Source: Candidatus Saccharimonadota bacterium (GTDB lineage Bacteria; Patescibacteriota; Gracilibacteria; UBA4473). From it: a stretch of 32,000 nt of DNA. Below are positions 948 through 20,706 of this stretch, piece by piece. The notes under the pieces were generated by a model. That model made no database searches, was not told the DNA's origin, and saw nothing but the letters and a program-made list of their open reading frames with translations. Position numbers and translations under genes: made by a program. Each line of letters starts with the position of its first letter. The first letter of the stretch is position 1. The stretch spans positions 991,207-1,023,206 of the forward strand of contig JAUIFI010000001.1 of NCBI GenBank assembly GCA_030429505.1, given 5' to 3'.

Positions 948-992
948 ATCTCAATTGTACGGAGTTCTTTTTTTCCTACAATAAAATTACCA

Positions 993-1280: not shown

Positions 1281-1284
1281 TTAC

Positions 1285-1312
1285 AAAAAAAAGCTCCATC
1301 GGAGCTTTCTTT
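1285..1312. terminator. bidirectional intrinsic terminator between convergent genes
   Basis: Hairpin agctcc/ggagct flanked by an A8 run upstream and tttcttt downstream. It lies between the TfoX_C gene (+) and the 1335..1913 gene (-). Confidence 0.5.
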
Positions 1313-1334
1313 GTAAAATACACAAACTTAATTC

Positions 1335-1913: not shown

Positions 1914-1981
1914 AAAAATAATAAAGTGTTCAGAGAAAATTCTAGGACATGAGGAAAACCTGTCAAGAAAAAAGAAAAGTT

Positions 1982-4066
1982 TTAGGTACTTTTTTCTGCC
2001 ATAATGCTTTCAGCCACATTTTTAGGTGTTTTCTGGTAATCCGCAAATTCCATTGTGTAACTAGCTCGACCTTGTGTGAGAGAGCGCAGGTCCGTCGCAT
2101 ATCCAAACATTGAAGCTAACGGAATACGAGCAGTAATAAACTTCGCCAAGCCTCGATCACCAGTTTCCTGGATAATCCCACGACGAGATGACACATCCCC
2201 CATCACATCTCCCAGATAATCCTCAGGGGTCACAATTTCCACATTCATGATCGGTTCTAAAAGTACAGGATCAGCTTTCTTCATACCATCTTTAAACGCT
2301 TGAATCGCCGCAATTTTAAACGCCAATTCAGAAGAATCCACATCATGATACGACCCATCATAGAGTTCTACCTCGACATCCACTACCGGATATCCAGCTA
2401 AAACTCCGCGAGTCGCTCCTTCCTTAAACCCTTTTTCACATCCGGGAATGTACTCATTTGGAATAGACGCTCCTTTGATAGAATTGATAAATTTAAATCC
2501 AACACCCGGTTCAGATGGACGGACTCGGCACAAAACATGCCCAAATTGTCCTCGACCACCAGATTGCTTCTTGTGTACATATTCAGCCTCAACAGCTTTC
2601 TGAATCGTTTCTCGGTAGGCGACTTGCGGCTGACCAATATTCGCCTCGACCTTAAATTCTCGCTTCATTCGATCGACCAGGACTTCCAAATGCAACTCTC
2701 CCATTCCAGACATAATTGTCTGATTCGTTTCTTCATCTGTATGTACACGAAAAGTCGGATCCTCTTCCGCTAATTTTTGCAGGGCTAATGACATTTTTTC
2801 TTGATCTCCTTTCGTCTTTGGCTCAATCGAAATCGAAATCACTGGCTCAGGAAAGTTAATCGACTCAAGAACAATGAGATTTTTTTCTGGACACAAAGTA
2901 TCTCCGGTACGAGTACTCTTGAGTCCTACCACGGCTCCGATATGCCCTGCCGGAATTTCAGAAATCTCCTCTCGGCTATTGGCATGCATCTGAAGCAAAC
3001 GACCAATTCGCTCTTTTTGTTCAGAATTGGCATTATATACATAACTTCCAGATTCAAGTTTTCCAGAATACACCCGGACAAACGTAATTCGACCCACATA
3101 CGGATCGGTCGCAATCTTAAACGCCAAAGCCGCCAAAGGCTCTGCCTTGTCAGCTTTCCGTGTCAATTCTTCTTCCTCATTATCAGGATTCGTTCCTTTT
3201 GCTGGCAAGATATCAAGAGGAGAAGGTAAGTAAGCCGTTACTGCATCGAGCAAAGGTTGCACACCTTTATTTTTCAAAGCCGTTCCGGTCATCACCGGTA
3301 CAAATTCACCAGCAATAGTAGCTCGACGAATAGCAGCTTTAATCTCATCAGCCGACAAATCAGCTCCACCCAAATATTTCTCCATCAATTCTTCATCAGA
3401 CGTCGCTACCGCTTCCAGCATCTTGTCTCTCCACTTATTCGCATCATCCACCATATCAGCTGGAATATCTTCTATTGAAATCTCTTTCCCGAGATCATCT
3501 TTGTACAAAATAGCCTTCATCTCGACCAAATCTACCAGCCCCTTGAAATGACTCTCCATACCAACCGGTAATTGAATAGGAAAAGCATTTTTTGTGAGTC
3601 GTTCCGTAATAGATCCATACGAACGCCAAAAATCAGCTCCCGTCCGATCCAGTTTATTGATAAAACACATGCGTGGCACGTTGTAGTCATCAGCTTGTCT
3701 CCAGACAGTTTCAGACTGTGGCTCCACTCCCGCGACACCATCAAAGACACACACCGCTCCATCCAAAACTCGCAAAGACCTCTGAACTTCTACCGTGAAA
3801 TCCACATGACCGGGAGTATCGATAATATTAATCTGACAATCTTTCCAAAAACAAGTCGTCGCCGCAGAAGTAATCGTAATACCACGCTCCTGTTCCTGCT
3901 CCATCCAATCCATGGTGGCTTCCCCCTCATGGACTTCACCGATCTTATGAGACTTTCCAGTATAAAAAAGAATCCGTTCGGTAACGGTCGTTTTTCCGGC
4001 ATCGATATGGGCGATAATCCCAATATTACGAACCTTATCCAAGGCATAGTGCGTGACTTTACTCAT
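1982..4066 (-). CDS. fusA: translation elongation factor G
   Basis: 694-aa ORF with GTPase motifs [17 protein letters not shown] and NKLDR, and EF-G domain IV/V signatures (GELHLEV, HDVDSSE). Confidence 0.97.
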
Positions 4067-4187
4067 TACAAAAAAATATAAAAAATCCCGTCGATTGTAG
4101 AAAGGGAGAGGAAATTGTCAAATGAGGAGAAAAAGAGTTGTATTATTACCAATAAAAATTATTAACTCTGAGACAATAGAGAAAATA

Positions 4188-4215
4188 GGCGTTAACTTTC
4201 TGTATAGTCAACGCC
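4188..4215 (-). terminator. putative terminator of the 4238..4528 gene
   Basis: Hairpin ggcgttaac/gtcaacgcc (9 bp, one mismatch) just downstream of the minus-strand stop, followed on the minus strand by a T-rich tract. Confidence 0.35.
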
Positions 4216-4237
4216 ACAGAGTATTACTCTTATTGTT

Positions 4238-4528
4238 CTAAGGGATAAAAGCCAGGGCAATGAGTACAAATCCAGCAAAAAACAGACAAATCGTCATTTT
4301 ACTAAAATCTTTCCCATAACCATAGTAATACTCATTCACTTTTTCCATAAGTGCCATATCAGAAAAACCTGCAATGCCCATAAATACTCGAATATAATAT
4401 GGCATATCCAATGGCCCCCAAAATATGCTAGAGACATATACTATAAGTATAATACCCCCAATGAATGCTAGTGCAATCTGCACATAGATGAGTTTGTCAC
4501 TCATCCACAGTAATATTTTATGTACCAC
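4238..4528 (-). CDS. small integral membrane protein (about 88-96 aa)
   Basis: Three hydrophobic helices. The track start is GTG at 4528; an alternative ATG lies at 4504. No family recognised. Confidence 0.5.
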   Translation of the reverse strand: MVHKILLWMSDKLIYVQIALAFIGGIILIVYVSSIFWGPLDMPYYIRVFMGIAGFSDMALMEKVNEYYYGYGKDFSKMTICLFFAGFVLIALAFIP

Positions 4529-4773
4529 GTACCACCTTAAAAAAATTTTTTAATGTAAAAAGAGCAATTTCCCCTAAATAGTAAGAAACCTCTCTCTTGC
4601 TTAATTTTATAATAAAAGAAGTTTTACTACTCTTGATTAAACCCTAAAATATAAAAAAATTAAGTCAATTATATCTGCTTTGATATTGTATTGTAGCTAA
4701 CAAAGATGTTACCACGTCTGCTCAAGGAAAGTAATACTAAAACGTGCTCTTAATAGCCAAAAAGTAATAGTAA

Positions 4774-5193
4774 ATGAAAATATACTTTGCCGGATCGATT
4801 CGAGGAGGAAGAGATGACAAAGAGTTATATGGGAAACTTATACAACATCTCGGAAAATACGGACAAGTGCTGACAGAACACGTTGGAGATGGAAATCTCA
4901 ACGATTCTGGAGAAGATCATCAACCAGATCAGTGGATTTATAAACGTGATATGGAGTGGGTTCGAGCATCAGATGTCATCGTAGCGGAAGTCACCACTCC
5001 CTCCCTCGGAGTCGGTTATGAGATCGGTAGCAGTGAAGCAATAGGAAAAAAGATTCTCTGTCTCTATAGAAGTCAACCAAATAAAAGTTTATCAGCCATG
5101 ATTAATGGCAATCCAAACGTACAGGTCATCTCATATGCCAACCTTGAAGAAGCCATTCATCATATAGATAAATTTTTTCAGTCACAATCGTGA
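4774..5193 (+). CDS. DNPH1/RCL-like 2'-deoxynucleoside 5'-phosphate N-hydrolase (nucleoside 2-deoxyribosyltransferase superfamily)
   Basis: Near-colinear match to DNPH1 hallmarks: YFAGSIRGGRDD, VLTEHV, VVAEVTTPSLGVGYEIG, KKILCLYR, SLSAMI. Confidence 0.85.
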   Translation: MKIYFAGSIRGGRDDKELYGKLIQHLGKYGQVLTEHVGDGNLNDSGEDHQPDQWIYKRDMEWVRASDVIVAEVTTPSLGVGYEIGSSEAIGKKILCLYRSQPNKSLSAMINGNPNVQVISYANLEEAIHHIDKFFQSQS

Positions 5194-5217
5194 CCTTCAC
5201 TTCATTACATATACAAG

Positions 5218-5523
5218 ATGAAATCATCGGAACTTACCATCAAAGAACTCATAAACATGATTATGCAACTCGCAGAAGAAAAGAAATTTGGCACGAAACC
5301 AGAAGATATCAATGTCGCTGAAAAAATGGTCTTGATCCATAGTGAAGTTTCAGAGGCTTTTGAAGCTTATCGTCGCAAGAATATGGACGGTCGGCACGGA
5401 TTCAAAGAAGAACTTGCCGATGTTATCATGCGGGTATTTCATCTCTGCGGTATCTTTGGTATTGATATACAAGCCGAAATACTCAAAAAAATGGAATACA
5501 ATAAAACCCGAGAATGGAAATGA
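5218..5523 (+). CDS. MazG-like nucleotide pyrophosphohydrolase (small all-alpha type, 101 aa)
   Basis: Acidic metal-binding helices of the MazG type: IHSEVSEAFEAYRR followed by KEELADVIMRVFHL. Starts 24 nt after the DNPH1-like gene on the same strand. Confidence 0.78.
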   Translation: MKSSELTIKELINMIMQLAEEKKFGTKPEDINVAEKMVLIHSEVSEAFEAYRRKNMDGRHGFKEELADVIMRVFHLCGIFGIDIQAEILKKMEYNKTREWK

Positions 5524-5727
5524 AAAACATAACGAACAAAGAAAAGAAGAAATATTCACAAAACAACTTGACTCCTTTGTAAAGAATGTTTATAAAAAAA
5601 AAGCTATTTACCAACTACAAACAGTACGTAAATGCGAAAAACTTTTCGATTGCCGTAGGGAGGCAATATCCATCTATTGATCAATTTGGGTATTGTCTCC
5701 GTTTTTTTTATACAACAAGTAAAAAAT

Positions 5728-5755
5728 TTGACAAAATCACTCGTCTGCCTAATAA
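5728..5755 (+). promoter_or_regulatory. sigma70-type promoter of infC-rpmI-rplT
   Basis: TTGACA (5728-5733), 16-nt spacer, TAATAA(T) (5750-5755). The predicted TSS near 5762 lies just upstream of the near-cognate infC start candidates. Confidence 0.45.
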
Positions 5756-5785
5756 TCCACCCGCTTTTTTCACTTTTCTTATACC

Positions 5786-6349
5786 ATAGGTATCTCATTT
5801 CGCGGCGGACGAAAAAATAAGCGTGCTGCTTTCAGAAAGCCCAAAAAACTTCATCGAACCAACGAGGAAATCACAGCCTCGACTTTGCGAGTCGTCGACT
5901 CAGCAGGCGAACTGGTCGGTGTGATAAGCTTGGACCAAGCACTTGAAAAAGCGCGTGAAGAAGGAGTCGACCTCGTCGAGATATCGCCCAAAGCAGACCC
6001 TCCCGTATGTCGAATCATCGACTATGGAAAAATGCTCTATGCACTCAAAAAGAAAGAGCAAAAAGGGAAGCAAGGCACGAAAACCCAAGAAATAAAAGGT
6101 ATTCGCCTCACCTTCCGTATAGGAGAAGGGGATATGGAGAGGCAGAGAAAAAAAGCGAGAGAATTTCTCGAAGAAGGTCATCCCATACGAATTCAGCTCG
6201 TTATGCGGGGACGAGAGAAAGCCCATAAAGACATAGCTTTTGAAAAATTAAACTCATTTATTGCAGGTCTTGCTGATATATCAAGACTTGAAAATAACCC
6301 AAAAGGATCAGGGCATCAAATAATAGCCATTCTCAAACCAGGAAAATAA
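5786..6349 (+). CDS. infC: translation initiation factor IF-3
   Basis: IF-3 N- and C-domain sequence (VDLVEISPKADPPVCRIIDYGK, IRLTFRIGEGD, RGRE). The in-frame reading is open from 5756 and encodes the conserved RTNEEITASTLRVVD segment upstream of the track TTG start at 5885. No ATG or GTG is available there, so the start is inferred at ATA 5786 or ATC 5792. Confidence 0.9.
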   Translation: MGISFRGGRKNKRAAFRKPKKLHRTNEEITASTLRVVDSAGELVGVISLDQALEKAREEGVDLVEISPKADPPVCRIIDYGKMLYALKKKEQKGKQGTKTQEIKGIRLTFRIGEGDMERQRKKAREFLEEGHPIRIQLVMRGREKAHKDIAFEKLNSFIAGLADISRLENNPKGSGHQIIAILKPGK

Positions 6350-6351
6350 CC

Positions 6352-6546
6352 ATGAAGCAAAAGACTCATTCCGGCACCAAAAAAAGAACAAAGATCACTG
6401 GAAGTGGTAAGCTCAGGCATGGACCATCCTGTAAGAATCATCTTTTGAGTTCAAAATCCAGACACAGAAAAAATATGAATCCACAGGGAGTTGCTTCTCC
6501 AAAAGGTCATAAAAAAAAGCTAAAAAGACTTCTTAATATTACTTAA
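6352..6546 (+). CDS. rpmI: 50S ribosomal protein L35
   Basis: 64-aa basic protein (KTHSGTKKRTKITGSGKL) beginning 2 nt after the infC stop, in the canonical infC-rpmI-rplT order. Confidence 0.92.
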   Translation: MKQKTHSGTKKRTKITGSGKLRHGPSCKNHLLSSKSRHRKNMNPQGVASPKGHKKKLKRLLNIT

Positions 6547-6574
6547 GAAGCATTTATTATTATCCTAAAAAAAC

Positions 6575-6940
6575 ATGGTACGAGTAAAAGGCGGCGTCGC
6601 ATCAAGAAACAGACACAAAAAAGTCCGAGCAGCCACCAAAGGCTATCGCGGAAAAAGACATTCTACCTTTCGTTTAGGTATGCAAGCTATGATGAAAGCT
6701 GGGACTCACGCCTATATCGGACGTAAACAAAAGAAAAGAGATTTTAGACGACTCTGGATTACACGTATCTCTACTGCGCTTCGCGCGATGGGATTACGCT
6801 ATTCAGAAGTCAAAAATCAATGGCTTCACGCCAAAATGGATATTGATCGAAAAAACCTCTCTGAACTCGCCGCTAACTACCCAAAAGTATTTGAAAAAGT
6901 AGTGGATACAGCCAAAAAAGCGAAAAAAGTGAGCGTGTAA
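6575..6940 (+). CDS. rplT: 50S ribosomal protein L20
   Basis: MVRVKGGVASRNRHKKV..AKGYRG..........YIGRKQKKRDFRRLWITRI is the L20 signature. Confidence 0.95.
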   Translation: MVRVKGGVASRNRHKKVRAATKGYRGKRHSTFRLGMQAMMKAGTHAYIGRKQKKRDFRRLWITRISTALRAMGLRYSEVKNQWLHAKMDIDRKNLSELAANYPKVFEKVVDTAKKAKKVSV

Positions 6941-7017
6941 GTACTACAAAAAATCACCCCATACCTAGACATCCTATTTTTCAGGAAGTGTATTTATCGT
7001 ATAAATTGCCTTAAAGC

Positions 7018-7173
7018 TTATTTTTTCTTCTCTGATTGTTGGATCATTTTTCCTAATTCATCATAAATCTTATGATGAACTATTCTGATATCAGAAAATT
7101 TGTTATCCACACTACATATAAGAGCTCGCAATTCTTGAAGCTGTAGAACGACTTGTTGCTTATTCATAAGCAT
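7018..7173 (-). CDS. possible small ORF (51 aa, helical), divergent from the first XRE gene
   Basis: I translated this by hand; it is below the track size cutoff. Sequence: MLMNKQQVVLQLQELRALICSVDNKFSDIRIVHHKIYDELGKMIQQSEKKK. No SD and no family match, so the only support is its position divergent from an HTH gene. Confidence 0.2.
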   Translation of the reverse strand: MLMNKQQVVLQLQELRALICSVDNKFSDIRIVHHKIYDELGKMIQQSEKKK

Positions 7174-7836: not shown

Positions 7837-8235
7837 ATGAATCAAACAATAGATCCTTCTCATGTTATTACCCAAGTCAGACATCTGATGAAAAAATTAG
7901 ATATTCCCAAGGTAAAGTTGGGAGAAGTTTTAGGCAAAAATGTCAAAGACAGTATTCAAACCAAATACGCCCGAGCTAACCGATTTTTGAAAGGACAAAA
8001 AAAAGGTATTTCTTTAGAACAAATAAACCAATTAGCTACATTTTTTGAGAAACCAATCAATTTTTTTCTCTATCCTCAAAAACTAGAATCAGGAGAAAAG
8101 TGTACTCAGGATTCTCCTCCCGCAGAAAAAGCTATTCGAGAAGGATTAATGAAAATGGGATTTGACCAAGAGTTTATCGAACTTGAAATTCAACAGCTCC
8201 GTAAATTTCAGTCCTATCATTCTCCTCGATCATGA
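7837..8235 (+). CDS. XRE-family helix-turn-helix protein, paralog 2 (132 aa)
   Basis: Roughly 60 percent identical by eye to the 7296..7703 product over the HTH region, with the same C-terminal MGFDQEFIELEIQQLR motif. Confidence 0.7.
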   Translation: MNQTIDPSHVITQVRHLMKKLDIPKVKLGEVLGKNVKDSIQTKYARANRFLKGQKKGISLEQINQLATFFEKPINFFLYPQKLESGEKCTQDSPPAEKAIREGLMKMGFDQEFIELEIQQLRKFQSYHSPRS

Positions 8236-8942
8236 CCAAGGAAGGAGGTTTGACCTTTCTCAGTAGTTTTAAAGATCGTCCTGACGAAGGAAAGCCTCGA
8301 GAAAAATTAGAAAAATATGGACCCAAAGGCTTATCGCTCTGGGAATTAGTTGCTATTATTCTTCGTACTGGAGAAAGGCACAAGGGAGGACACTTTGAGG
8401 ACGTGGAAGAATTATCTCGGCGACTACTGGCTGAAGCGGGATTTAAGGGGCTCTTTGCCCAAAGAGACATCCTAGAAACCACAGATCAATATCAGGTCTA
8501 TAAAAGTCATGCTGAGATTTTGGTGGCTATATCTGAGATCCATCGTCGCTTAAAAGGCAATTTTGGGATCTTTGATGCCTCTGAACCCAGTAAAATTTTT
8601 GACCAATTGAAATCGCTCCAAAAAGCGAAACAAGAACAATGTCATGTCCTGCACATCGATAAACACAAAAAATGTACTTTTTCAGAGATGGTAGCCCTAG
8701 GAGGACAAAATACCGTCGCTGTTTCTTTTTCAGATGTCTTGAGAACTCCCTTGTGGCTGGGAACCTCAGAGATAATAATCGTTCATAACCACTTAGGAAA
8801 AACCAAACCTAGTAAAGCGGATATTAGCTGGACACTAGCCTTAGCAGAAGGAGCGTGGCATATGCATCATATCAAAATATCCGATCATATCATTATCGGA
8901 AGCGATGGATACTGTTCGTTTCAGGAAAAAGGATTGTTATAA
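8232..8942 (+). CDS. radC: RadC-like JAB/JAMM domain protein (UPF0758 family)
   Basis: N-terminal RadC pattern PREKLEKYGPKGLSLWELVAIILRTG. C-terminal JAMM-like HNHLGKTKPSKAD and DHIIIG. The ATG overlaps the stop of the upstream XRE gene (ATGA, 8232-8235). Confidence 0.85.
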   Translation: MTKEGGLTFLSSFKDRPDEGKPREKLEKYGPKGLSLWELVAIILRTGERHKGGHFEDVEELSRRLLAEAGFKGLFAQRDILETTDQYQVYKSHAEILVAISEIHRRLKGNFGIFDASEPSKIFDQLKSLQKAKQEQCHVLHIDKHKKCTFSEMVALGGQNTVAVSFSDVLRTPLWLGTSEIIIVHNHLGKTKPSKADISWTLALAEGAWHMHHIKISDHIIIGSDGYCSFQEKGLL

Positions 8943-9011
8943 AAAAACCGTCAACGCTATTATACGTTGACGGCATAGTATCAGTTTTGTTCTGATACGG
9001 TGCTCTTTTTT
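8941..9011. terminator. convergent terminator region with two hairpins
   Basis: First hairpin ccgtcaacg/cgttgacgg (8948-8973) is preceded by A7, which gives a T7 tail on the minus strand and would serve the 9021..10457 gene. Second hairpin gtatcag/ctgatac (8978-8998) is followed by a T6 run on the plus strand and would serve radC. Confidence 0.45.
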
Positions 9012-9020
9012 ACATAATTT

Positions 9021-10457
9021 CTATTGCTGTACAACTATCAATACAGTTCGTGATACGTTTCCAGATTGTACTTCCACAAAGTAACTACCTGGAACAAGAC
9101 CACTAGTCGATACTCTATTTTGATCGGGCATTTCCGTCTTACAAATACGTCCCATCATATCAAAAATCTTAACCTTGAGAGAAGAAATATTATCCTCTGT
9201 TACAAGGTGTGCGAATGATCCACTACTTATCGGGTTTGGGTAAATCACACTTTGATCTGGTGACTCAACTTTTTCCTCGATATGCACGGTAACATCAAAT
9301 ATCTCATCAAGACTCAACTGAAGGAGTCCTGCTCTGGTTCCAACCCATAAATACTCTTCATTGGCATACATTGCCTCAGTTCCAAACCAATTGTCCGGAT
9401 TCCACTCCGGAAATATGGCTTGAATATTTATGGGAATGGACTTCCCATCCTGTATAACAAAAGGAATTTGCGGATTCAAGACTGACGAAAATCCCACAAA
9501 CTCAATTGAGCCAACAGTAGCAAAGTGAAAATGAGAGACATGTCGTAAATCATCAGACAAGTAGTTCTCATGAACACCGTTAGACGGATTATATCGAATC
9601 ATCCTAGTCGGATAAAGAATATCATCGCTACCTATGCCAGAATGAGCTGTCATAATCAGAGATCCGTCAGATGCAATAAAAAGATTCTCTACCATTGCTC
9701 CATAAGAGACTCCTGCCTCATTAGGAACATGAAAGAGATCGAAAGAGTCTCTCTGTGGGTTATAGCGATAGAGCCCCCCTTGGGATTCAGGATGAATACG
9801 CATATAAGCGACCCACAGATCGCCATTGCCATCCTCGGCGACATTCGTTAGATGTCCAAATGTCGGGGAATACTTATGATGTTTCCTCTGGAGGGCATCC
9901 CCAAAAAGAAAAATTTCTTCATGAGGAGGTCCCACCCTGGAAAAAACAGTCCCATTTATGGTATCCCTAGATAGCACATTATGAGCTTTAGCAGTGATCC
10001 ACGTTCTGGAATGCGAATCCGTAAATATCGTATTAAAAATCCTCTCGTCGAGAGAGTCTTTCCAATCAGAACGATGCCATCTCTGTTCCACCACATCAAA
10101 ACGAAGGACTTCTCCCAGAAGAGTAACAATTGGATTGCCGTCTCTATCAAGTCCGAGATCATTGATTTGCATCACTTCAGTAGAATACGGATAATCGTAT
10201 TCTGCCATGGATACATTGACCCACTTGTCATCATCAGCATCGAACATCAGGATAGCAGAGTTCGTTACCAATAGATTGTTTATATAAGAGTTTTGATTGC
10301 CCAAGACCCATATTTGTGAGTCTTGATCCTCTACAATATCTACTATATGAAAACCATGAAACGATGATTCAGGGAACCAGCGTGATTGTCCCAAAGTAAC
10401 TGTCTGGCTAGAAAAGACCATGATCGTTACCAAAAAACAAAAACTTAGTTTTTGCAT
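9021..10457 (-). CDS. secreted beta-propeller-like protein with T9SS-type (Por secretion tail) C-terminal domain
   Basis: Signal peptide, then repeated (D/G)xxWV..T..GL-type blades resembling two-component-regulator propeller repeats (QIWVLG, RTWITA, DLWVAY, YLWVGTRAGLLQL). The last roughly 75 aa fit the T9SS CTD pattern: IYPNP...., VKIFDMMGR, SGLVPGSYFVEV. Confidence 0.75.
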   Translation of the reverse strand: MQKLSFCFLVTIMVFSSQTVTLGQSRWFPESSFHGFHIVDIVEDQDSQIWVLGNQNSYINNLLVTNSAILMFDADDDKWVNVSMAEYDYPYSTEVMQINDLGLDRDGNPIVTLLGEVLRFDVVEQRWHRSDWKDSLDERIFNTIFTDSHSRTWITAKAHNVLSRDTINGTVFSRVGPPHEEIFLFGDALQRKHHKYSPTFGHLTNVAEDGNGDLWVAYMRIHPESQGGLYRYNPQRDSFDLFHVPNEAGVSYGAMVENLFIASDGSLIMTAHSGIGSDDILYPTRMIRYNPSNGVHENYLSDDLRHVSHFHFATVGSIEFVGFSSVLNPQIPFVIQDGKSIPINIQAIFPEWNPDNWFGTEAMYANEEYLWVGTRAGLLQLSLDEIFDVTVHIEEKVESPDQSVIYPNPISSGSFAHLVTEDNISSLKVKIFDMMGRICKTEMPDQNRVSTSGLVPGSYFVEVQSGNVSRTVLIVVQQ

Positions 10458-10493: not shown

Positions 10494-11195
10494 TCAACAT
10501 CCATCTTGGCAATCACGATCATATTCACTTTGTTCTGAACAGTCGGTTATACGCTCTTTACTCAGGAGCCTCATCCGTACAAAACGGTCCCCAAAAGTTA
10601 GATCATCTTGCCAACAGTATTGATAAGTTCTTCGACAGCAAGTGTTTCCACAAGCTTGCCATTTTGCAACTGTAACGGTCGTGGGATTTTCACCTTCTTC
10701 TGGGTAAGGGAGATCAAATCCGGGATCGCACTCACGAGAATCAGGATCAACTTCATAAGTACAATGAACCCAAATACCGCAAGAAGCACTATATATGCGA
10801 ACACTCATTGTGGTATCACTCGGTTCCGGAAAAGTATCATCAGCAAAGCCACAAGGAGGGAATGATCCTCTCTCGCTGACTCTCTCTACAAATGAGGATA
10901 TGGCAAATTCGAGTCCAACATTTAAGTTGTTCTCATACAAAGAAAGCCCTGGAAGGCTTTCACACTCTTCCTCAACGGAGATTGAGGTAATAAAAAATTC
11001 TGGTACATTGCTACCGTTACAAAATCGTTTTAGATAGAACACCCAGACATCACAATCCGGTTCTCCCAATCCGAGACGGATCCAAAGAGTGTCGCCCCAA
11101 GCATCACAGTTACTATCAGGTGGACACGGCTGAGCCATGACACCACTAAATTGAAAAAGAAAGACAAACAATAAGCAAATCAATCCTCTCTTCAT
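10494..11195 (-). CDS. secreted 16-cysteine protein, paralog A (unknown family)
   Basis: Signal peptide ending VMAQP, with 16 Cys in the mature part. The ATG at 11195 is preferred because GGAG lies 8 nt upstream; the track start is 11207. Confidence 0.72.
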   Translation of the reverse strand: MKRGLICLLFVFLFQFSGVMAQPCPPDSNCDAWGDTLWIRLGLGEPDCDVWVFYLKRFCNGSNVPEFFITSISVEEECESLPGLSLYENNLNVGLEFAISSFVERVSERGSFPPCGFADDTFPEPSDTTMSVRIYSASCGIWVHCTYEVDPDSRECDPGFDLPYPEEGENPTTVTVAKWQACGNTCCRRTYQYCWQDDLTFGDRFVRMRLLSKERITDCSEQSEYDRDCQDGC

Positions 11196-11233
11196 AAGAA
11201 GCTCCATTTAAAAAGTCGTGAATCTTTAGTGAA

Positions 11234-11923
11234 TTACAAACAACCATCCTGACATGGTATTGTTTGATACTTTTCCGCGTCGCTACAAGCGGTAATCTGT
11301 TCAGTACTAACAAGTTCAATATGAACAGAACGACCTGGACCTATTGAACAGTATCTAAAAGTTCTTTTGCAACAAGTAGTTCCGCAATCTTGAAATCGAT
11401 ATACGTCAACCTTGGACGGGGTCCCATAATCCAAAAAAGGTTCTTCAAAACCTCTTTCACACGTACGGGTAGTAACATCTACATCGTAGGTGCATTTCAC
11501 CCATACACCACACGAAGCGGTGTAGACTTGGGCATTGTAGCTAGTATCACTTGGGTTTGGATCTGAGCAGTCAGCCATGTTAGGGAAGTCTTGCCGTGCT
11601 CTCTGCTTTATAAAACCACGGGTGATAGTTTCAAATGCTACGCTTAGGTCGTACTGATAGACAGTAAGATCCCGCATTGCCTCGCATGTTCCCATATAGG
11701 AAACACCTGTAATAAGATATTGATACCCTTCATCGGGACAAAATCGTGATCTAAAATTCACTATAGCACGACAACTGGGATTAATTGTTATAAATCTTTC
11801 GTATTGCTCTGGTCCAAAATCACCGCAATCATCTGGTGGCGGACATGGTTGAGCAAATGCAGGAATTCCGCTATAAAAAAAGAGTAAACCAAAAAGCATG
11901 GTGAGATATTTGTAATATTTCAC
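11234..11923 (-). CDS. secreted 16-cysteine protein, paralog B (unknown family)
   Basis: Signal peptide ending AFAQP, with 16 Cys aligned with paralog A. GTG at 11923 is preferred because GAGG lies 6 nt upstream; the track start is TTG at 11935. Confidence 0.72.
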   Translation of the reverse strand: MKYYKYLTMLFGLLFFYSGIPAFAQPCPPPDDCGDFGPEQYERFITINPSCRAIVNFRSRFCPDEGYQYLITGVSYMGTCEAMRDLTVYQYDLSVAFETITRGFIKQRARQDFPNMADCSDPNPSDTSYNAQVYTASCGVWVKCTYDVDVTTRTCERGFEEPFLDYGTPSKVDVYRFQDCGTTCCKRTFRYCSIGPGRSVHIELVSTEQITACSDAEKYQTIPCQDGCL

Positions 11924-12131
11924 TTTATACCTCAAGGAATAAAAATAACAGGAAAGAAAGTAGAGTTAATTGCATACTAAAGAGATGCATTTTTAGGCGA
12001 ACAATGAATCAATACAAATTTTGGCGAACAACTAAACCAACAAGAAACACAAAAATAGAAGTTACGTAAAAGAGCTAAAAAATTATGAAAACATTAAAAA
12101 AAGTGTCAATCGTATTTCTAATCAAAAACAC

Positions 12132-14537
12132 TTATTGTACAAACAAAATTGGAAAACAGTACGGAAAGTTCGTAAAGGAACATGTTGGTTGAGGAGGATC
12201 ATCCTCTTCCAGACATTGTGCACTGGAGCTAGTGACATCACGCTGTCCAACTTTGTATGGATTCAAACTAATCACACATGGAACTGTTTTGGGAGTGCAT
12301 CGACTAGGACTCGTGACATCAATAATTTGTTTTCCAGATTCAGTATAATCACATGGATCTTCATGAACTAAGCCACTCGCTGTCTCAGGATCATCAATTT
12401 CTGGACGAAAGACAAACTTCTCATGAGCTTCTCCTTGAGCACCAATCACATTGACTGGGGTACGCCCCGGATCTTCGTTTGTCACTCCATTGATCAATTC
12501 CAAAAGATTGATACTCGGCGGCTCGGAATCGTAAAAATCAATATCAATTACAAGATCATTTGAATCTATACAATTACCTACACGATCACAAACTTCAAAT
12601 TCGATAGTCTTATTATCACAAAAACTACGCCCTCCTGAACGATCACAAAAATTTCCTACAACCGGAAAAGTCGCAAAGCTCGTGGCGGCATTTGGAAAAA
12701 AACATCCTGCCGTTCCGGAAGCTCCATCATCACAGAGAACAGTCAATGTTACCGCTTCATTTGTAAAGTACTCTTCGTTTGTAACTTGTTGACGAGTTTT
12801 CCCATCATAGAGAAAACTCACATTTGTAGGAACTGTTGTATCCAAAACAATAGAAGTGGTATTCGTCGTTTCGAGATCCGTTGACTCCTCAAAACCATCA
12901 CCAGCCAAATCAAATTGGATTTGTGGTATATAAACTCCATCAGGTACCGCTCCAAAAGCACTATTGGTATTTACTACAAAGGTATAGGCAGCATCTATAA
13001 TTCCTTCCGAATCAGACAACTCATTATCAGTAAGCACAAAAAACCCAGTCTGTCCCACTACCTGATTTCCACCGTCATAAAGCAAGACATTCACCTGACT
13101 TACATCTGGTTGCAATAACCCTGAAGCACCATCAATCAAAGTGCCGGAAAAAGCCAAGCTACGGAAATCAGTAAAATCTCCAGAAGCTGCCGGATTGGCA
13201 GCAGTATTATCAGTAGGTTCTGTCCAAGTATTCGATGGAGCAGCAAGCGACATCCCCCCCCATAAAAGAAAAGGTATAAAAAGCCACAGTCCTAGGCGGT
13301 CATGAAAAGGTTTATGCTTGTGATGTGAAAAAATAATAAAAAATCCTGCTACCACTAAAAGAGCCAAAAGGCTGTAAATAAACCATTTTTCCTTGACCAG
13401 ATTAGACCAGAGATTGAACTGATGTTGAACTTGTCTCTCCAAAGGAGATCGATAGTTCTCGGTACGAAGCGTTTTTGTCTCAATAGTAGAACCATTTTGT
13501 GATACATCTACTGTGAAATGAAATGTTGAAGCCCCTGGTTCTACAACATCAAAAGAAAAAAGTGTTTCAAATTCATCAAAATCAAATTCATTGACTTCTC
13601 TGGTTTCCGAAAAAGTATGATGCACTTCACCTTTTGAAATCTGTTCACCATTGACCGTAAAAGTGAGTGGATCTCGATTATTACGAGTGGTCCCAGCGAT
13701 AAAAAGATGAATCTTATTTCCTGGATCAATAAAGGTTTCCGGTTCAGCGTCCATAGCTCGGATATGGACAAAATCACCATCAATCAGGAATGGCTTAATA
13801 AGAGTCCCAGTTAACCGTTCTCCGTTTTCTGCAACAGCTTTGACTTCGACAATGTATTTTTTGGGAACGTCTGGAACAGGAAAAGAAAACTCTATTTCCT
13901 TTTTTTCTTTTCCCGTCAAAGTTTGTATATCACCTTTCGCTGAAAAGAATATTTTTTCACCTACTTCATGCTCAAAAACAGTTACTATAGGCACAAAAGA
14001 CAACTCTTTATCTAAAGAATCTGTATCTTGCCAAACAAGAAAAGCTGTCTGCATCTGGTTATCTTTCTCAACTCTCAGGTTAGATATACGAGTAATATCT
14101 TTATCCTGATTAATAACAATTTTTTGATGTCCTTGAGCTATCAAAGAGGCATTAAGCTGGCTTGTAATACGAAAATGAAGATTAAAATCCCCCGCTATAT
14201 TTTTCTGTGAAAAATCATAAGAAAAAGGGATTACAATCTGGGGTATTCCGTATTCTTGGGAATGAAATAAAAAACTATCATTCCATGAAATTTGCTGTGT
14301 CCATACCTCAGCTCCAAAAGAGTCAGTAATACTCCAAGAAATATCACCAATATCATTCGATAATGTGTTTTTAAGCCAAGCTTTCCCAGTCATCTGAGCA
14401 CCATCTATCTCCGGTCTGATATCAATAGTTTTTAATGATCTCGTTTTGATTGGAACGGCGTCAACACTTCCTATTCCTAAAAAGAAGAAGCTCAACGCAA
14501 CACAGATTCCTACCGAAGCAATGGAACGAACATGCAT
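12132..14537 (-). CDS. large surface protein with two ectodomains joined by a transmembrane hairpin (about 801 aa)
   Basis: N-terminal signal peptide. A central pair of hydrophobic helices (FIYSLLALLVVAGFFIIF, then LGLWLFIPFLLWGGMSLAAPS) is separated by a basic loop SHHKHKPFHDR. The C-terminal part is Cys-rich. The first ATG is at 14537; the track TTG is at 14543. Confidence 0.72.
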   Translation of the reverse strand: MHVRSIASVGICVALSFFFLGIGSVDAVPIKTRSLKTIDIRPEIDGAQMTGKAWLKNTLSNDIGDISWSITDSFGAEVWTQQISWNDSFLFHSQEYGIPQIVIPFSYDFSQKNIAGDFNLHFRITSQLNASLIAQGHQKIVINQDKDITRISNLRVEKDNQMQTAFLVWQDTDSLDKELSFVPIVTVFEHEVGEKIFFSAKGDIQTLTGKEKKEIEFSFPVPDVPKKYIVEVKAVAENGERLTGTLIKPFLIDGDFVHIRAMDAEPETFIDPGNKIHLFIAGTTRNNRDPLTFTVNGEQISKGEVHHTFSETREVNEFDFDEFETLFSFDVVEPGASTFHFTVDVSQNGSTIETKTLRTENYRSPLERQVQHQFNLWSNLVKEKWFIYSLLALLVVAGFFIIFSHHKHKPFHDRLGLWLFIPFLLWGGMSLAAPSNTWTEPTDNTAANPAASGDFTDFRSLAFSGTLIDGASGLLQPDVSQVNVLLYDGGNQVVGQTGFFVLTDNELSDSEGIIDAAYTFVVNTNSAFGAVPDGVYIPQIQFDLAGDGFEESTDLETTNTTSIVLDTTVPTNVSFLYDGKTRQQVTNEEYFTNEAVTLTVLCDDGASGTAGCFFPNAATSFATFPVVGNFCDRSGGRSFCDNKTIEFEVCDRVGNCIDSNDLVIDIDFYDSEPPSINLLELINGVTNEDPGRTPVNVIGAQGEAHEKFVFRPEIDDPETASGLVHEDPCDYTESGKQIIDVTSPSRCTPKTVPCVISLNPYKVGQRDVTSSSAQCLEEDDPPQPTCSFTNFPYCFPILFVQ

Positions 14538-14667
14538 ATTCAAGGTGTGTTTTTCTTTCCCTCATTCTAAAAGCTTTCCATTTGAAAGCAAAATTTATTT
14601 ACAAGGCGTTAAAAAAGAGCTAAAAGTATTGCCAATTTTCACAATTCGCGGAAAATAAAGACCGACT

Positions 14668-16182
14668 ATGAAATTTCGTCGCAAAAAAAGAAGAACGCCC
14701 TATCGTTATCAAAGGCGCCGTACTCGGCGTCGAAATTTTGCTCCACTGATAACCTTTATTATAGCATTTTCCCTGTTTGTATTTTTGAGTATCAAGCTCA
14801 TAAAAGTTATTTTTTCCGGAGTTCGATCTGAATCAGTCGCCTCTGAGATTCAAGTCATCAAGGGCAGGACAGAATTTTACTTTCCAGAAAAAGAGGAGTG
14901 GACTCCAGCTTATTCAGAACTCAAATTTTTAGAGGGCGATTCAATTCGTACTACCAGTAATTCTCAAGCTTCTCTCGAATTTTTTGGCGGAACACTTGTT
15001 TTTCTCGACGAAAATACCGAAATTAATCTCAAAGAACTATCAGAAAAATCATCCGGTCAAAAAAACACGGTCATTCACCTCAAGCAAGGTCAAATTTGGG
15101 TAAAGGTATCAGAGGATGATTTTGATACCGAAAAAGATTCGAAATTTCAGGTCCTAACGAATCGAGTCAAAGCTCATGTTCGGGGAACCATCTTTGATTT
15201 AACCACGAGTACCGATCAAGATGTTATTCGGCTCATTAAAGGGAATGTGGATGTAGATGTTTTGGGAGAAAAAGAAGATGAAGTTTTACAAAATATAAAA
15301 GTAGAAGTTGGACAAAAACTCGTCGTATCTCCTGTAAATATGGAAAATATCCAAGCCGGACAAGATGTAAAAGAAATCATTGACACTGAATTTATTGAAT
15401 CTGAATGGCATCTTCAAAATCTCGAACAGTTTTTTCCTCAAGAAGCAGCTCAAATTCGAAGAAGAATTGATATTACCACTCCGCAAGAACAACCAAAATT
15501 AGAGGAAACTCCAAATCAATCCGGAGAAGGCATAGAAGCTCCAGTAATCTTGGAACCAGCTAGTGGGACAACTGTTGTAGCTAGTGCCGATAGTGTCAAA
15601 ATTGAAGGAACAGCACCCTCAGACGCTATGCAAATTGTCGTTAATGGATATACCTTGAGTCGATTTCAGCCCGGAGATCGTAAATGGGTGTATTTTGCGA
15701 GTACCAAATTTGGCACGCTCTTACCCGGAGAAAATAACTATGAAATCATTGCTGTTTCACGAGAAGGACAAAAATCAGCTCCAGCAAAACTCGCAATCAC
15801 CTACCAAGGAACAACTACCCCCACAAATACAGAAGCTTCCGTAGCTCCTATAACGGCAGCGACAATTGATGATTTTAAATCACCAGTTATTACTTCTCCC
15901 CCTATTCTTAATCCTGGAGAACCATACCAAACCTCAGCTCCAGCAGTGACGATTAAGGGTATAGTCGACCCTAAGACCAATGCAGTCGAAGTCAATGGAT
16001 TTCGTCTTCAAAAGTTCGTCCCTGGAAAAACAGAATTCCAATACGTAGCCAATTCACAAGTCGCGAGTCCAAATTTTAAGACTGGAGAAAATATATTTGA
16101 AATCGTTGCTTTTGGACCGGATAACAAAAAGGCCAGCACCACACTTAAAATTCTCTATAATCCGGTTACTGTAACTCCATAA
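14668..16182 (+). CDS. membrane-anchored FecR-domain protein with two C-terminal Ig-like repeats
   Basis: Arg-rich cytoplasmic tail (KFRRKKRRTPYRYQRRRTRRR), one TM helix, then a FecR-like pattern (LKFLEGDSIRTTSNSQASLEFFGGTLVFLDENTEINL ... VRGTIFDL ... LIKGNVDV). Two homologous modules of about 90 aa follow (VNGYTLSRFQPGDRKW.. and VNGFRLQKFVPGKTEF..). Confidence 0.78.
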   Translation: MKFRRKKRRTPYRYQRRRTRRRNFAPLITFIIAFSLFVFLSIKLIKVIFSGVRSESVASEIQVIKGRTEFYFPEKEEWTPAYSELKFLEGDSIRTTSNSQASLEFFGGTLVFLDENTEINLKELSEKSSGQKNTVIHLKQGQIWVKVSEDDFDTEKDSKFQVLTNRVKAHVRGTIFDLTTSTDQDVIRLIKGNVDVDVLGEKEDEVLQNIKVEVGQKLVVSPVNMENIQAGQDVKEIIDTEFIESEWHLQNLEQFFPQEAAQIRRRIDITTPQEQPKLEETPNQSGEGIEAPVILEPASGTTVVASADSVKIEGTAPSDAMQIVVNGYTLSRFQPGDRKWVYFASTKFGTLLPGENNYEIIAVSREGQKSAPAKLAITYQGTTTPTNTEASVAPITAATIDDFKSPVITSPPILNPGEPYQTSAPAVTIKGIVDPKTNAVEVNGFRLQKFVPGKTEFQYVANSQVASPNFKTGENIFEIVAFGPDNKKASTTLKILYNPVTVTP

Positions 16183-17226
16183 ATGAGTGATACAGGATAT
16201 TTCGAATACTCAGATAGTCATAAAAAAGCATGGGATGATTTTGTTCTCCAATCTTCTTACGGTTCGATTCATCAAGTTTCTGACTGGAAATCATTTCAGG
16301 AAAAAATTCCAGGACGAGAAATAATTCGTGGATTTGGAATCAAATCAAAAGACCAGATCAAAGCGGTCACTTGGTGCATTCAAATGAAAACAGGGTTTCG
16401 GGATACTTTTTGGTGGTACTCTCCACGAGGACCAGTCTTTGATCCCATTAAGGATAAAAAATACGGCGAATTACTGATCGACCATATTCAATCTCAATTA
16501 CGTCAAACCAAAGCTCTTTTTTGGCGCTTTGATCCTTATTTTTCAACTCAAGAGTTTGAAACTCTCAAGGTTAAAACCCAAATGAGACCTTCCACTCAAG
16601 ACTACCAACCCACCAATACTTTGGAACTTGATCTAAACAAATCAAACGACCAGCTACTTAGCGAAATGAAGAGAAAAGGACGGTACAATATTAAGCTTGC
16701 GGAGAAAAAATCATTACGAGTTGAAGTCATTGAAAAAGGAAAATTTACAGATCAAGATATCAATGACTTCTGGCGACTCAATACCGAAACTACAAGCCGA
16801 GATGGATTTTCAGGACATGAAAAGAGTTATTACCAAAAACTTCTTACTTTCGTAAAAAATTATGCAGTCCTGTTTTTTATAACTACTTCTGATAATGTCC
16901 GTATTGCAACCGCTATTTCTACCTTTTGCAGTTCGAAAGCTATTTATTATTTTGGAGCTTCAACTTCCAATCCAGAACATCGTCCTCTTATGGCACCCTA
17001 TTTACTTCAATGGGAAATGATACAATTCGCTAGAATAAAAAAATGTACGACTTATGATTTTCTCGGCATCGCTCCCGAAAATGAACCAGATCATAAATAT
17101 AGTAGTATATCAGAATTTAAATGGAAATTTGGTGGAGAACGAAAAATTTATGGCAGAGGCAGAGAAATTGTCTTTTCTCCGTTCTGGTATCAAATCTATC
17201 AAGGAGTCAAACGACTTAAATCATAA
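16183..17226 (+). CDS. FemAB-family peptidoglycan interpeptide-bridge aminoacyltransferase (MurM/FemX-like)
   Basis: FemAB family pattern: MKRKGRYNIKLAEKK, TTSRDGF, YYFGAS....HRPLMAPYLLQWEMIQFA, YDFLGI, EFKWKFGG. The ATG immediately follows the upstream TAA (16180-16185 TAAATG). Confidence 0.85.
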   Translation: MSDTGYFEYSDSHKKAWDDFVLQSSYGSIHQVSDWKSFQEKIPGREIIRGFGIKSKDQIKAVTWCIQMKTGFRDTFWWYSPRGPVFDPIKDKKYGELLIDHIQSQLRQTKALFWRFDPYFSTQEFETLKVKTQMRPSTQDYQPTNTLELDLNKSNDQLLSEMKRKGRYNIKLAEKKSLRVEVIEKGKFTDQDINDFWRLNTETTSRDGFSGHEKSYYQKLLTFVKNYAVLFFITTSDNVRIATAISTFCSSKAIYYFGASTSNPEHRPLMAPYLLQWEMIQFARIKKCTTYDFLGIAPENEPDHKYSSISEFKWKFGGERKIYGRGREIVFSPFWYQIYQGVKRLKS

Positions 17227-18347: not shown

Positions 18348-20360
18348 CTATTTCACATGAACCTGCAAAATATTATGAAAGCGATGAAGTCCTAAATCTC
18401 GATGAGATTTTTTATAGAAAAGATTGGTTTCAACATTGACTATCTGCTTATCAGGATTTTTTCTAACGACAGCACTATACGACACGACTCCATGATTAAA
18501 TTGTAAGCAACGAAACATGTGAGAGTCATGAAGACAATTTTTGTGAAGAGGAAAAGAAGATATCTCGGTAAAAAAACTAGGAAGTTCATGAACCAATCTT
18601 TCTGCTACGTAAGGCTGAGGAAGATCAAATTCAAACGTTATCCCTTCCCCTTCCTTTAGTATTACTGAGTGAGGATTTTCAAAAAAGGCATCTTTGGTTT
18701 TGATACGAAAAGATACAGATTTTTGAAAAACATTATCAAGACCTCCATCTTCATTTTTATCCCATATTTGTTCCGGTGGAATTTCCTCTGAAGAAAAAGA
18801 TGAAAGATTCTGAGGATGAATCGACACCAAAGAAAAAGTATTTTTACCAGTTTTATCAAGAACTAAACCGTAAAGATTTCCAGTTTTTGGATGTATGTGA
18901 AGTTCTTTTACAGAAAATGATAAAGCAAACTGTTGTACCGAAAAATCATTCGTATCAATAACAAAAAGGCGTGAAGAAGCAGAAGTATTGTCAACAACAC
19001 TATATTTTTTCGTTTCAATATTATATACACCGCTCCCACCATAATAACGCTTAAGATCAGGAATAAGAATTTTCTTTTGGATCACCCCACTTCCAAGATT
19101 AAATGATGTAAAGTACATACTATTATCCTGATTCAAAAGCCCATATAGCGTATTGCTTTCTGTATCAATCGCCAATTCTCGCATATCTGGAGGTACGGAA
19201 CGTTGAACTGCCACCTGACCAGTCTGGGGATAGATCATATAGAGCCTAGAAACAAGGTTGGCTTCATAGCCCAAAAGAACATAAGTTTTTGTTTTTGGAT
19301 TATAGGCAGAACTCCCTCCTGTATATGCCTTCATGCTAGGAATAAAAATTCTCCGTTTTACTGTGAAATCTGATAAATCCAAAGAAACAAAATACATATC
19401 AGTTTCAAGATTTTTATTCTCTATCTTACTCACTCGTTCAATACCATAAAGACTATTTGATTCCAGATCGATCTGGAGTTCCATTAATTCTCTGAAAGGT
19501 TTCTGTGTTTCTATATCACCTGCATTCGTATCTATGACATACAATTGTGGCAGACCATCTTTATCATAACCACGAAGTAAGTATTTATCAGTATTGGAGT
19601 TATAGGTTGAACTGCCGCTAATAAAAAAGTTCAAGTCAGGAATAACATCCAGAATAACTTTTGAACTATCTTCTAAAATAGTAGAACCTGTATTTGAATC
19701 GGTATTCGATTCATCTATACGTTCTTGTCCCGCGAATAAATATTGATAGATAGCCACCGCCACTTCATTTCGTGTCAAAAAACGACTTGGTTCTAAATTG
19801 GTAGCACTTCTTTTGGGAAATAAATCATATTTCTCTGCCGCACCAGCAAAAGGTGAAAACCAGTCCTGAAAGGCGACATCATCATAAGCATGATCAATAT
19901 TTTTTGTAATCCCATATGCTTGGGTCATCATCTTTAAAAATTCAGCCGTATTGACTGATCTTTCCGGACGAAAAAAACCATCTGGATAGCCATCGATAAT
20001 ATTTGATTCTGCTGCTTTGAGAACATATGGGGCATACCATTGGTCTCGCAATACATCAAAAAACTGATCATTATCAGTAAACTGACCGGTATCGATTTTT
20101 GCTGAAAGCAATAAAAATTTAGCCGCTTCGGCTCTATTGACCGGACGATTTCCTTTAAATTCTCCATCCGGATAGCCATTAATAATGCCGTGTTCACGAA
20201 GTGTGGTGGCGGCAATCTGCTCTAAGCTTCCTGGCAACATATCAGGAAAGTGAACGACCTGCTGAGTAGTATCTGATGCAGCTTTTCCAACGTGAAAGCT
20301 AAAAGAAATAAGCACTCCCAAGAGGAATGCTCCCATAAATCGAGAAAAAATATTTTGCAT
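18348..20360 (-). CDS. S-layer-homology (3x SLH) surface protein with three repeats of about 95 aa
   Basis: Signal peptide, then three SLH motifs (GIINGYPDGEFKGNRPVNRAEAAKFL; NIIDGYPDGFFRPERSVNTAEFLKMM; TRNEVAVAIYQYL). Three homologous repeats follow (GSSxYNxxTxxY...LYVID/LYMIY/LFVID...SNxLYG). The ATG at 20360 has GAGGA upstream; the track GTG is at 20369. Confidence 0.85.
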   Translation of the reverse strand: MQNIFSRFMGAFLLGVLISFSFHVGKAASDTTQQVVHFPDMLPGSLEQIAATTLREHGIINGYPDGEFKGNRPVNRAEAAKFLLLSAKIDTGQFTDNDQFFDVLRDQWYAPYVLKAAESNIIDGYPDGFFRPERSVNTAEFLKMMTQAYGITKNIDHAYDDVAFQDWFSPFAGAAEKYDLFPKRSATNLEPSRFLTRNEVAVAIYQYLFAGQERIDESNTDSNTGSTILEDSSKVILDVIPDLNFFISGSSTYNSNTDKYLLRGYDKDGLPQLYVIDTNAGDIETQKPFRELMELQIDLESNSLYGIERVSKIENKNLETDMYFVSLDLSDFTVKRRIFIPSMKAYTGGSSAYNPKTKTYVLLGYEANLVSRLYMIYPQTGQVAVQRSVPPDMRELAIDTESNTLYGLLNQDNSMYFTSFNLGSGVIQKKILIPDLKRYYGGSGVYNIETKKYSVVDNTSASSRLFVIDTNDFSVQQFALSFSVKELHIHPKTGNLYGLVLDKTGKNTFSLVSIHPQNLSSFSSEEIPPEQIWDKNEDGGLDNVFQKSVSFRIKTKDAFFENPHSVILKEGEGITFEFDLPQPYVAERLVHELPSFFTEISSFPLHKNCLHDSHMFRCLQFNHGVVSYSAVVRKNPDKQIVNVETNLFYKKSHRDLGLHRFHNILQVHVK

Positions 20361-20706
20361 TATCCTCACTATAAACTGCTTCTCAAAAGAAAAAAAGCCT
20401 GTGAGGTAACAAGCTTTTTTTCATAGTAAATATTTATAAATATTAAAATTACTTCAGTAATGTTAATTTTTCCACCTTCATAAGAATTTCTTTAAGCATC
20501 ACCTGCTTGTGCTTGTTTCACAAATTGAATCAGGCACGCGTTCATTATCTCCGCCTTATCCAACTATACTATAATCTTTAGTGATGGTTGGGAAATGAGC
20601 GTTGGTCATCAGTTCACTCGTATCATAATAAATAAGGAATTGGAAACACTTCCGATACCCATAACTGACAGAAAAAAATGTGCGACATTTTTTTTAAAAT
20701 AAAGAT

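Follow-up and report, generated by a model that had tools for sequence, protein, structure and literature searches.

Two adjacent genes for small, secreted, cysteine-rich proteins on a contig of Candidatus Saccharimonadota bacterium raise the question of which family these proteins belong to and with what they work. The genes lie in a window of 32,000 nucleotides (GenBank assembly GCA_030429505.1, contig JAUIFI010000001.1, positions 991,207 to 1,023,206), to which all coordinates refer unless another locus is named, and are designated A (10494-11207, minus strand) and B (11234-11935, minus strand). An initial annotation, made from the letters alone, had proposed a tandem pair from an unrecognised family that forms part of a dedicated surface or secreted module. 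Its observation and interpretation proved essentially right; what changed is the identity of the module's partner and the standing of the family. A and B belong to a real, rare and lineage-restricted family of 16-cysteine proteins that comprises more than 100 sequence clusters and is not an orphan. Its genes almost always adjoin, in the same orientation, genes for type IX secretion system (T9SS) cargo. The chances are about even, in our judgement, that A and B are disulfide-locked extracellular subunits that lack the T9SS C-terminal sorting domain (CTD) and work with a T9SS-exported partner.

The two minus-strand genes, described at the outset as encoding about 230 residues each, are open reading frames (ORFs) with exactly these boundaries, separated by 26 bp, and their products are paralogs (38% identity over 232 residues, BLASTP E 2e-51). 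Because the closest relative of A is B and that of B is A, the pair points to what would be an old local duplication. Gene A encodes 237 aa from its first ATG, and its database copy (P0001) starts at M5 and has 233 aa. Gene B encodes 233 aa from a TTG; its database copy (P0003, 221 aa) starts at an internal Met (ATG), the stretch that differs being 11900-11935 on the minus strand. The K/R-rich n-region of B (MRYKVKYYKY...) is present only with the TTG start and is lost altogether from the internal Met. As it supplies this charged region, TTG would be the preferred start of B.

Both proteins have a hydrophobic N-terminus with a predicted Sec/signal peptidase I (SPI) signal peptide, read from the sequence as MELLMKRGLICLLFVFLFQFSGVMA then QPCPP in A (11133-11207, minus strand) and MRYKVKYYKYLTMLFGLLFFYSGIPAFA then QPCPP in B (11852-11935, minus strand). 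Cleavage falls between VMA and QPCPP in A and between AFA and QPCPP in B, in line with the AQPCPP ends first noted, and in the model of A its signal peptide forms a helix at the N-terminus (residues 3-16 of P0001). The lipobox [LVI][ASTVI][GAS]C of signal peptidase II (SPII) is absent from both proteins, in which A-Q-P precedes the first mature cysteine. The mature proteins have about 210 residues. Of the 17 cysteines of protein A one belongs to the signal peptide, and B contains 16, so that each mature protein has 16. The claim that all 16 occupy aligned positions stands for 15, which match exactly when the two proteins are aligned with each other; at the sixth (A C119, B C123) a gapped loop leaves the two cysteines a few residues apart. 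In the family alignment described below, the sixth cysteine of A falls in one column, which holds Cys in 77 of 80 members. The shared blocks listed initially are all present, namely RFC, (S/T)ASCG(I/V)WV(H/K)CTY(E/D)VD, R.C(D/E).GF, Q.CG.TCC(R/K)RT(Y/F).YC, IT.CS and the C-terminal CQDGC, at which B has one extra Leu.

These two proteins were placed in a wider family by an exhaustive profile search, which covered 1.84 billion cluster representatives. It recovered 127 proteins at E <= 1e-3, of which 97 matched at E <= 1e-10 and 37 at E <= 1e-30, with A at 2e-124 and B at 2e-105. Against a profile of 80 members, hmmsearch gave E 4.8e-68 for A and 4.1e-59 for B. Nearly all members are single-domain proteins of 210-270 aa matched end to end, they share only 30-45% identity, and every named cluster member is called "hypothetical protein". 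The exhaustive search was needed because word-indexed homolog searching is nearly blind to this family (1-6 matches): in 5.8 billion proteins it returned P0002 as the sole relative besides the proteins of the window itself. A literature search found neither a description of a 16-cysteine family of this kind nor a precedent for piggy-back export through the T9SS. The family offers a new domain for annotation, and its fold is modelled with confidence but finds no counterpart in the PDB by Foldseek.

Cysteine conservation was scored on an alignment of 80 full-length members. Ten of the 16 mature cysteine columns are invariant, four further columns are Cys in at least 96% and one in 89%, and C48 and C78 (P0001 numbering) are Cys in 75% each and co-vary. 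With the columns conserved or invariant across the 80 members and this 75% pair co-varying, the cysteine pattern shared by A and B is far beyond chance, and the positions hold in the homologs, the point on which the initial reading could have failed. All 16 cysteines are kept in 74 of 105 distinct full-length sequences; among the 105, joint losses affect C48 and C78 in 21, C115 and C194 in 3, and C30 and C59 in 2. Because the cysteines are lost in defined pairs and their count stays even, the pattern argues for disulfides rather than metal sites and supports about eight predicted disulfides, as the initial annotation had held in postulating an eight-disulfide extracellular fold. The lost pairs give provisional, putative pairings of C48-C78, C115-C194 and C30-C59. 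Two longer motifs, YxAxCGxWVxCxY and KWQxCGxxCCxRTYxxC, are conserved in the family and present in both A and B, and A has a cysteine in every one of the 16 columns. Furthermore, the aligned cleavage site has the consensus A before Q, followed by 0-6 residues and then C; with Gln at +1 in 84 of 89 members and A, S or G at -1, it fits the signal-peptidase-I "Q-rule" pattern described for Bacteroidetes (PMC5837995).

The taxonomic distribution is narrow. A scan of one genome per species with a pattern from a 12-member alignment found 23 loci, almost all in metagenome-assembled genomes (MAGs) of Kapaibacteria/Kapaibacteriota, Chlorobiota and Ignavibacteria, including HR20, KatS3mg039/040, SKW43, J074 and UBA2333. 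On its T9SS CTD protein and its Gln-type cleavage sites, the genome of the window falls in the Fibrobacteres-Chlorobi-Bacteroidetes (FCB) group. The closest family relatives of the window's A and B are found in these Kapaibacteria, Chlorobiota and Ignavibacteria lineages, and HR20, KatS3mg040 and CAYVWR01 have 2-3 copies per genome. For Kapaibacteria and Ignavibacteria, which are largely uncultured, the family provides a lineage marker and a candidate surface protein. In what follows, W denotes the locus in the window, and L001 and the like denote other family loci. Four loci, L003, L004 (CAYVWR01), L017 (CAZBNQ01) and L024 (JAYRWZ01), carry the labels Alphaproteobacteria, Hyphomicrobiales and Chloroflexota. 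In each, the family gene adjoins a gene for a T9SS-CTD protein; since the same cassette with T9SS cargo is found there, either the assigned taxa or the binning is probably in error. At L025 (7230-8633) the family ORF reaches 467 aa and extends upstream of the family domain, either as a real N-terminal extension or fusion or as an artefact of taking the first start codon.

Searches for known relatives upheld the claim that the family is unrecognised. Neither A nor B has a match at E <= 1 in Pfam, or in NCBIfam save for a chance match of B (E 0.085, 10.9 bits against a cut-off of 808), and neither has a match in PADLOC or PHROGs. Across the 80 members, Pfam returned only isolated single-member matches at E >= 0.005. 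Against PDB sequences, phmmer found only GATA zinc fingers (E ~0.1-1), and the family profile found papain-like proteases (E ~0.5) in a region that lacks the catalytic Cys; both were rejected as chance matches between cysteine-rich sequences.

To place the fold, AlphaFold2 models were built with the family alignment (A, pLDDT 85 and pTM 0.74; B, pLDDT 87.4 and pTM 0.77). The two models share one topology, with three N-terminal strands, a helix of 16-18 residues, two strands of 20-25 residues and a final strand, and the two long strands bear the motifs that are conserved best, YxAxCGxWVxCxY and KWQxCGxxCCxRTYxxC. Foldseek gave no match at E <= 0.001 for both models against the PDB or for model A against BFVD, the best TM being about 0.2; recurring matches to MHC class II, Tdp2 and RPA were dismissed at TM 0.1-0.2. 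No confident profile or structure match to a characterised family thus emerged from Pfam, the PDB or AlphaFold with Foldseek. By sequence and by Foldseek, the 16-cysteine family is new to the databases searched.

The partner of the family lies immediately downstream of A, after a gap of 36 bp. This gene (9021-10457, minus strand; assigned by Pfam and NCBIfam) encodes a 478-aa secreted beta-propeller-like protein with a T9SS type-A CTD. Pfam assigns Por_Secre_tail (E 1e-8, 35.8 bits, cut-off 27) and Reg_prop (22.9 bits, cut-off 20.4), and NCBIfam assigns TIGR04183 (E 2e-11). The CTD spans residues 405-478 (9024-9245, minus strand), with Por_Secre_tail at 405-470 and TIGR04183 at 405-477. For a profile of 12 partners the best PDB match is P. 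gingivalis PorZ (5m11, E 2e-5), and CTDs from other T9SS cargos come next; among these 12 partners, Pfam finds the CTD in 9 and Reg_prop in 5. On the strength of these Pfam and PDB profiles, the partner is predicted to be a PorZ-like Reg_prop propeller with a CTD.

Genomic neighborhood analysis shows that this linkage is conserved. A partner homolog directly adjoins the family gene in the same orientation, the two being very closely spaced or overlapping, at W, L001-L013, L015 (two cassettes), L018, L019 and L022. Around more distant family members a three-gene version was found, which consists of the family gene, a 160-240-aa Por_Secre_tail protein and a CTD propeller of about 460-820 aa (L027-L030, L033 and L035-L036); at L031 the last two genes are in reverse order, and at L021 and L023 a propeller that lacks the CTD is followed by a small CTD protein. 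Double family genes also occur elsewhere, as family-family-partner at L005 and family-partner-family at L003, so that the window's A/B pair is one arrangement of a common theme. The window has no gene for a small CTD protein and has a second 16-cysteine gene instead. As regards the flanks described initially, the downstream T9SS-CTD propeller was correctly recognised. The upstream gene (12132-14543, minus strand, ORF), called a giant surface protein at first, encodes 803 aa, which does not make it a giant. No other family locus has a homolog of it, and it was rejected as a member of the module, so that what remains of the proposed module, and what was found on checking synteny, is the family gene or genes with the T9SS-CTD propeller and, in other lineages, a small CTD protein.

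Several further features of the cassettes were recorded. The small cassette proteins (170-240 aa), which make up a third conserved component, have a signal peptide, a short motif (roughly [IV]x[YF]Tx[FI][DN]G[SK]x[YF]) in two copies and a T9SS CTD; their genes lie at L017:802-1368, L020:2577-3143, L021:5600-6139, L023:9985-10509, L024:622-1221, L027:4867-5502, L029:5745-6455 and L031:2574-3188. In one cassette subgroup a gene for a 265-aa DUF1573 (HYDIN/VesB-like Ig) protein stands directly upstream of the family gene (L027:3250-4047, L028:3179-3976, L029:4137-4934 and L030:423-1220). At L035 the gene just upstream of the family gene is similar to those for extracytoplasmic function (ECF) sigma factors.

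The family proteins and their partners have also diverged together. Over 14 cassettes the similarity matrices of the two proteins correlate (Pearson 0.92, Spearman 0.52, Mantel p = 2e-4) and contain the same three subgroups, paralogous cassettes of a single genome included. This agreement indicates that the cassette has been duplicated and inherited as a unit. Within it, divergence is much faster in the partner than in the family protein, and partners share only 15-26% identity.

A natural fusion provides further evidence. P0123 (354 aa) consists of a full but divergent family domain (59 bits, profile positions 1-221) followed by a Por_Secre_tail CTD (E 1.8e-9, above the Pfam cut-off). Because it is fused to a CTD, the family domain is itself predicted T9SS cargo in at least one lineage. 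The gene sits on a 3.2-kb metagenomic contig, on which the upstream ORF (L026:1-789), cut by the contig end, encodes a cysteine-rich protein with a T9SS-CTD-like tail (…PNPF…MYFVVIQT…KIVKQR).

In the window, the transcription signals fit a candidate B-A-partner operon. A sigma-70-like promoter match (TTGACA-16-CATAAT, 11/12; 12082-12109, minus strand) lies about 150 bp upstream of B and is the only strong one, with the limit that this consensus may not be the host's, as promoters of the FCB group may differ. A strong hairpin like that of an intrinsic terminator, of 11 pairs and then a T-run (8947-8974, minus strand), follows just after the partner's stop codon, and neither the B-A gap (26 bp) nor the A-partner gap (36 bp) contains such a site. 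With one promoter-like site before B, a terminator-like one after the partner and none between, the three genes may well be transcribed together.

Proteins pass through the T9SS in the folded state and need both a Sec signal and a folded CTD to do so (PMC9251779). A and B carry the predicted N-terminal Sec signal of T9SS type-A cargo. Neither has a Por_Secre_tail or TIGR04183 match at E <= 1, both ending at CQDGC, and a T9SS CTD is absent from all 80 members at E <= 0.1, P0123 being the exception. From the family, its cysteine scaffold and its linkage to CTD cargo, we infer a physical complex, an export route, a final location and a biochemical role along the following lines. A, B and the propeller would cross the inner membrane via Sec, and signal peptidase I would cut before Gln. 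A and B would then fold and become oxidised in the periplasm and, having no CTD of their own, bind the CTD-bearing partner. Together they would act at or beyond the outer membrane, where A and B may serve as a very stable subunit, with a binding or structural role, of a surface module. The simplest export would be that of a pre-formed complex of A/B and partner leaving through the T9SS.

Several points weigh against this reading. The physical complex between A/B and the partner is inferred, and both the synteny and the co-diversification could come from inheritance as a unit in the absence of any binding. To our knowledge, there is no demonstrated case of the T9SS carrying out a CTD-less protein, which makes the export route speculative, and for proteins that lack a CTD the default location is the periplasm. 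The Rosetta-stone argument comes from one fusion on one 3.2-kb metagenomic contig. L016, L025, L032 and L034 have no recognisable CTD neighbour (L034 is cut off), and gene order is not fixed, the partner coming first at L004. No ligand, active site or binding surface was identified for the A/B family.

The strongest alternative, though unlikely, is that A and B are dedicated periplasmic chaperones, holdases or inhibitors of the adjacent T9SS cargo, which would bind the propeller before export and stay behind at the translocon. The lack of a CTD in A, B and at least 100 other members agrees with it, and the tight operonic coupling and co-diversification fit a cognate binder, as does a partner that diverges faster than the family protein. 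Against this, P0123 carries a T9SS CTD and is hence exported, and eight disulfides in about 210 residues amount to an extreme stabilisation that is more typical of extracellular proteins. The partner, moreover, has no toxic or enzymatic domain in need of inhibition.

The low identities, 30-45% in the family and 15-26% among partners, together with the several divergent copies per genome (2-3 in HR20, KatS3mg040 and CAYVWR01), could also be read as arms-race diversification. A and B would then belong to a conflict or polymorphic module, as a secreted toxin or bacteriocin-like effector or as the immunity partner of a T9SS-delivered effector. The L001 cassette, which holds P0002, adjoins a phage-type integrase (8216-9523 of that locus) and a type I restriction-modification system (1-7030), which suggests that at least P0002's copy is on a genomic island. 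Most cassettes, by contrast, have ordinary chromosomal genes around them, no match to a toxin, peptidase, nuclease or immunity family was found for either protein, PADLOC is empty, and strong conservation of the scaffold and of two long motifs sets the family apart from hypervariable toxin tips. On this balance a conflict role is rather improbable.

It is very unlikely that the cysteines serve as ligands of metals or clusters (metallothionein-like, Fe-S or Zn) in a periplasmic metal-handling or redox protein. The 16 invariant-type cysteines with their CxxxCC motif and a DsbD_2/thioredoxin gene pair about 10 kb away in the window would suit such a protein, but the cysteines are lost in specific pairs that keep the count even, and the signal peptide directs the protein to an extracytoplasmic, oxidising compartment. 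In addition, a confident beta-rich model was obtained without ligands, the ligand motifs of c-type cytochromes, Fe-S and zinc-ribbon proteins (CxxCH, CxxC...CxxC) and conserved His are absent among the conserved columns of the 80-member alignment, and there is no Pfam metal-binding match. The most remote alternative, a distant member of a known 16-cysteine, eight-disulfide family such as the thaumatin-like proteins (PR-5, PF00314) missed through divergence, has the matching cysteine number (16), mature size (about 21-24 kDa) and beta-rich character on its side and was rejected, there being no Pfam Thaumatin match (A and B at E <= 1, 80 members at E <= 0.1), no thaumatin chain found in the PDB by the family profile and no thaumatin found by Foldseek with two confident models, though many are deposited (best TM about 0.2).

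CTD-less extracellular subunits working with a T9SS-exported partner thus remain the preferred reading of A and B. A bolder form of it, which we put forward tentatively as possible and well short of an even chance, is that the family represents a new disulfide-knotted fold and the first CTD-less T9SS hitchhikers, which would form multi-subunit surface modules of a 16-cysteine subunit, a small CTD protein and a propeller and, in Kapaibacteria, Ignavibacteria and Chlorobiota, would have diversified to several cognate sets in one genome. The significance of the family lies in the rule that each T9SS cargo has its own CTD. A conserved, strongly stabilised family that lacks a CTD, yet is linked genetically to CTD cargo at dozens of independent loci and fused to a CTD at one, is a testable case for multi-subunit or piggy-back secretion.

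Several other genes of the window are of note. The 803-aa neighbour upstream of B has an N-terminal signal sequence, one central hydrophobic segment (~386-408) and 13 cysteines, 12 of them in the last 200 residues, and has no match in Pfam, NCBIfam, PADLOC or PHROGs. A FecR-domain gene (14668-16182, plus strand) abuts a FemAB-family peptidyl-transferase-like gene (16183-17226, plus strand), stop followed by immediate start, which is an unusual pairing; the FecR, FemAB and RadC neighbours likewise have no homolog at any other family locus. A 673-aa protein with S-layer homology (SLH) domains (18348-20369, minus strand) is encoded in a genome that also has T9SS CTD cargo, an uncommon envelope combination. 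Finally, a gene for a DsbD_2-type membrane protein (20988-21716, minus strand) lies beside one for a thioredoxin-fold protein (21795-22286, minus strand). This is the pair about 10 kb from the 16-cysteine genes, and it resembles a thiol-reductant pathway of the periplasm, which could help multi-disulfide proteins to isomerise their disulfides.

Set against known systems, the protein family is new to the searched databases and the system is a new variant of T9SS-dependent surface modules. Thaumatin-like proteins are secreted, beta-rich proteins of about 200 residues with 16 conserved cysteines in eight disulfides. A and B are alike in cysteine number, size, beta-rich character and secretion, but they have no sequence, profile or structure similarity to them, and the cysteine spacing and motifs of the family differ. 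The partner and PorZ (PG93/PG1604) both have Reg_prop blades and a T9SS CTD, a likeness of about 60 residues of repeat. The partner family, at 450-545 aa, fits one propeller, whereas PorZ reportedly has two, and the partner has several divergent copies per genome; its likeness to PorZ does not imply a role in the PorU/V/Q attachment complex. With T9SS type-A cargo (PF18962 / TIGR04183) the family shares its lineages (the FCB group), a Sec signal with a Gln cleavage site and an operon with CTD cargo. A, B and nearly all other members differ from it in having no CTD, so that by the defining feature they are not cargo and any T9SS dependence would be indirect. The nearest parallel to the proposed mechanism is the Tat "hitchhiker" export of E. 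coli PaoABC and HybOC, in which a subunit that has no export signal leaves, folded, with a signal-bearing partner. Export of A and B with their propeller would be analogous, but at a different membrane and with a different machine and signal, and for the T9SS it is put forward here as a hypothesis.

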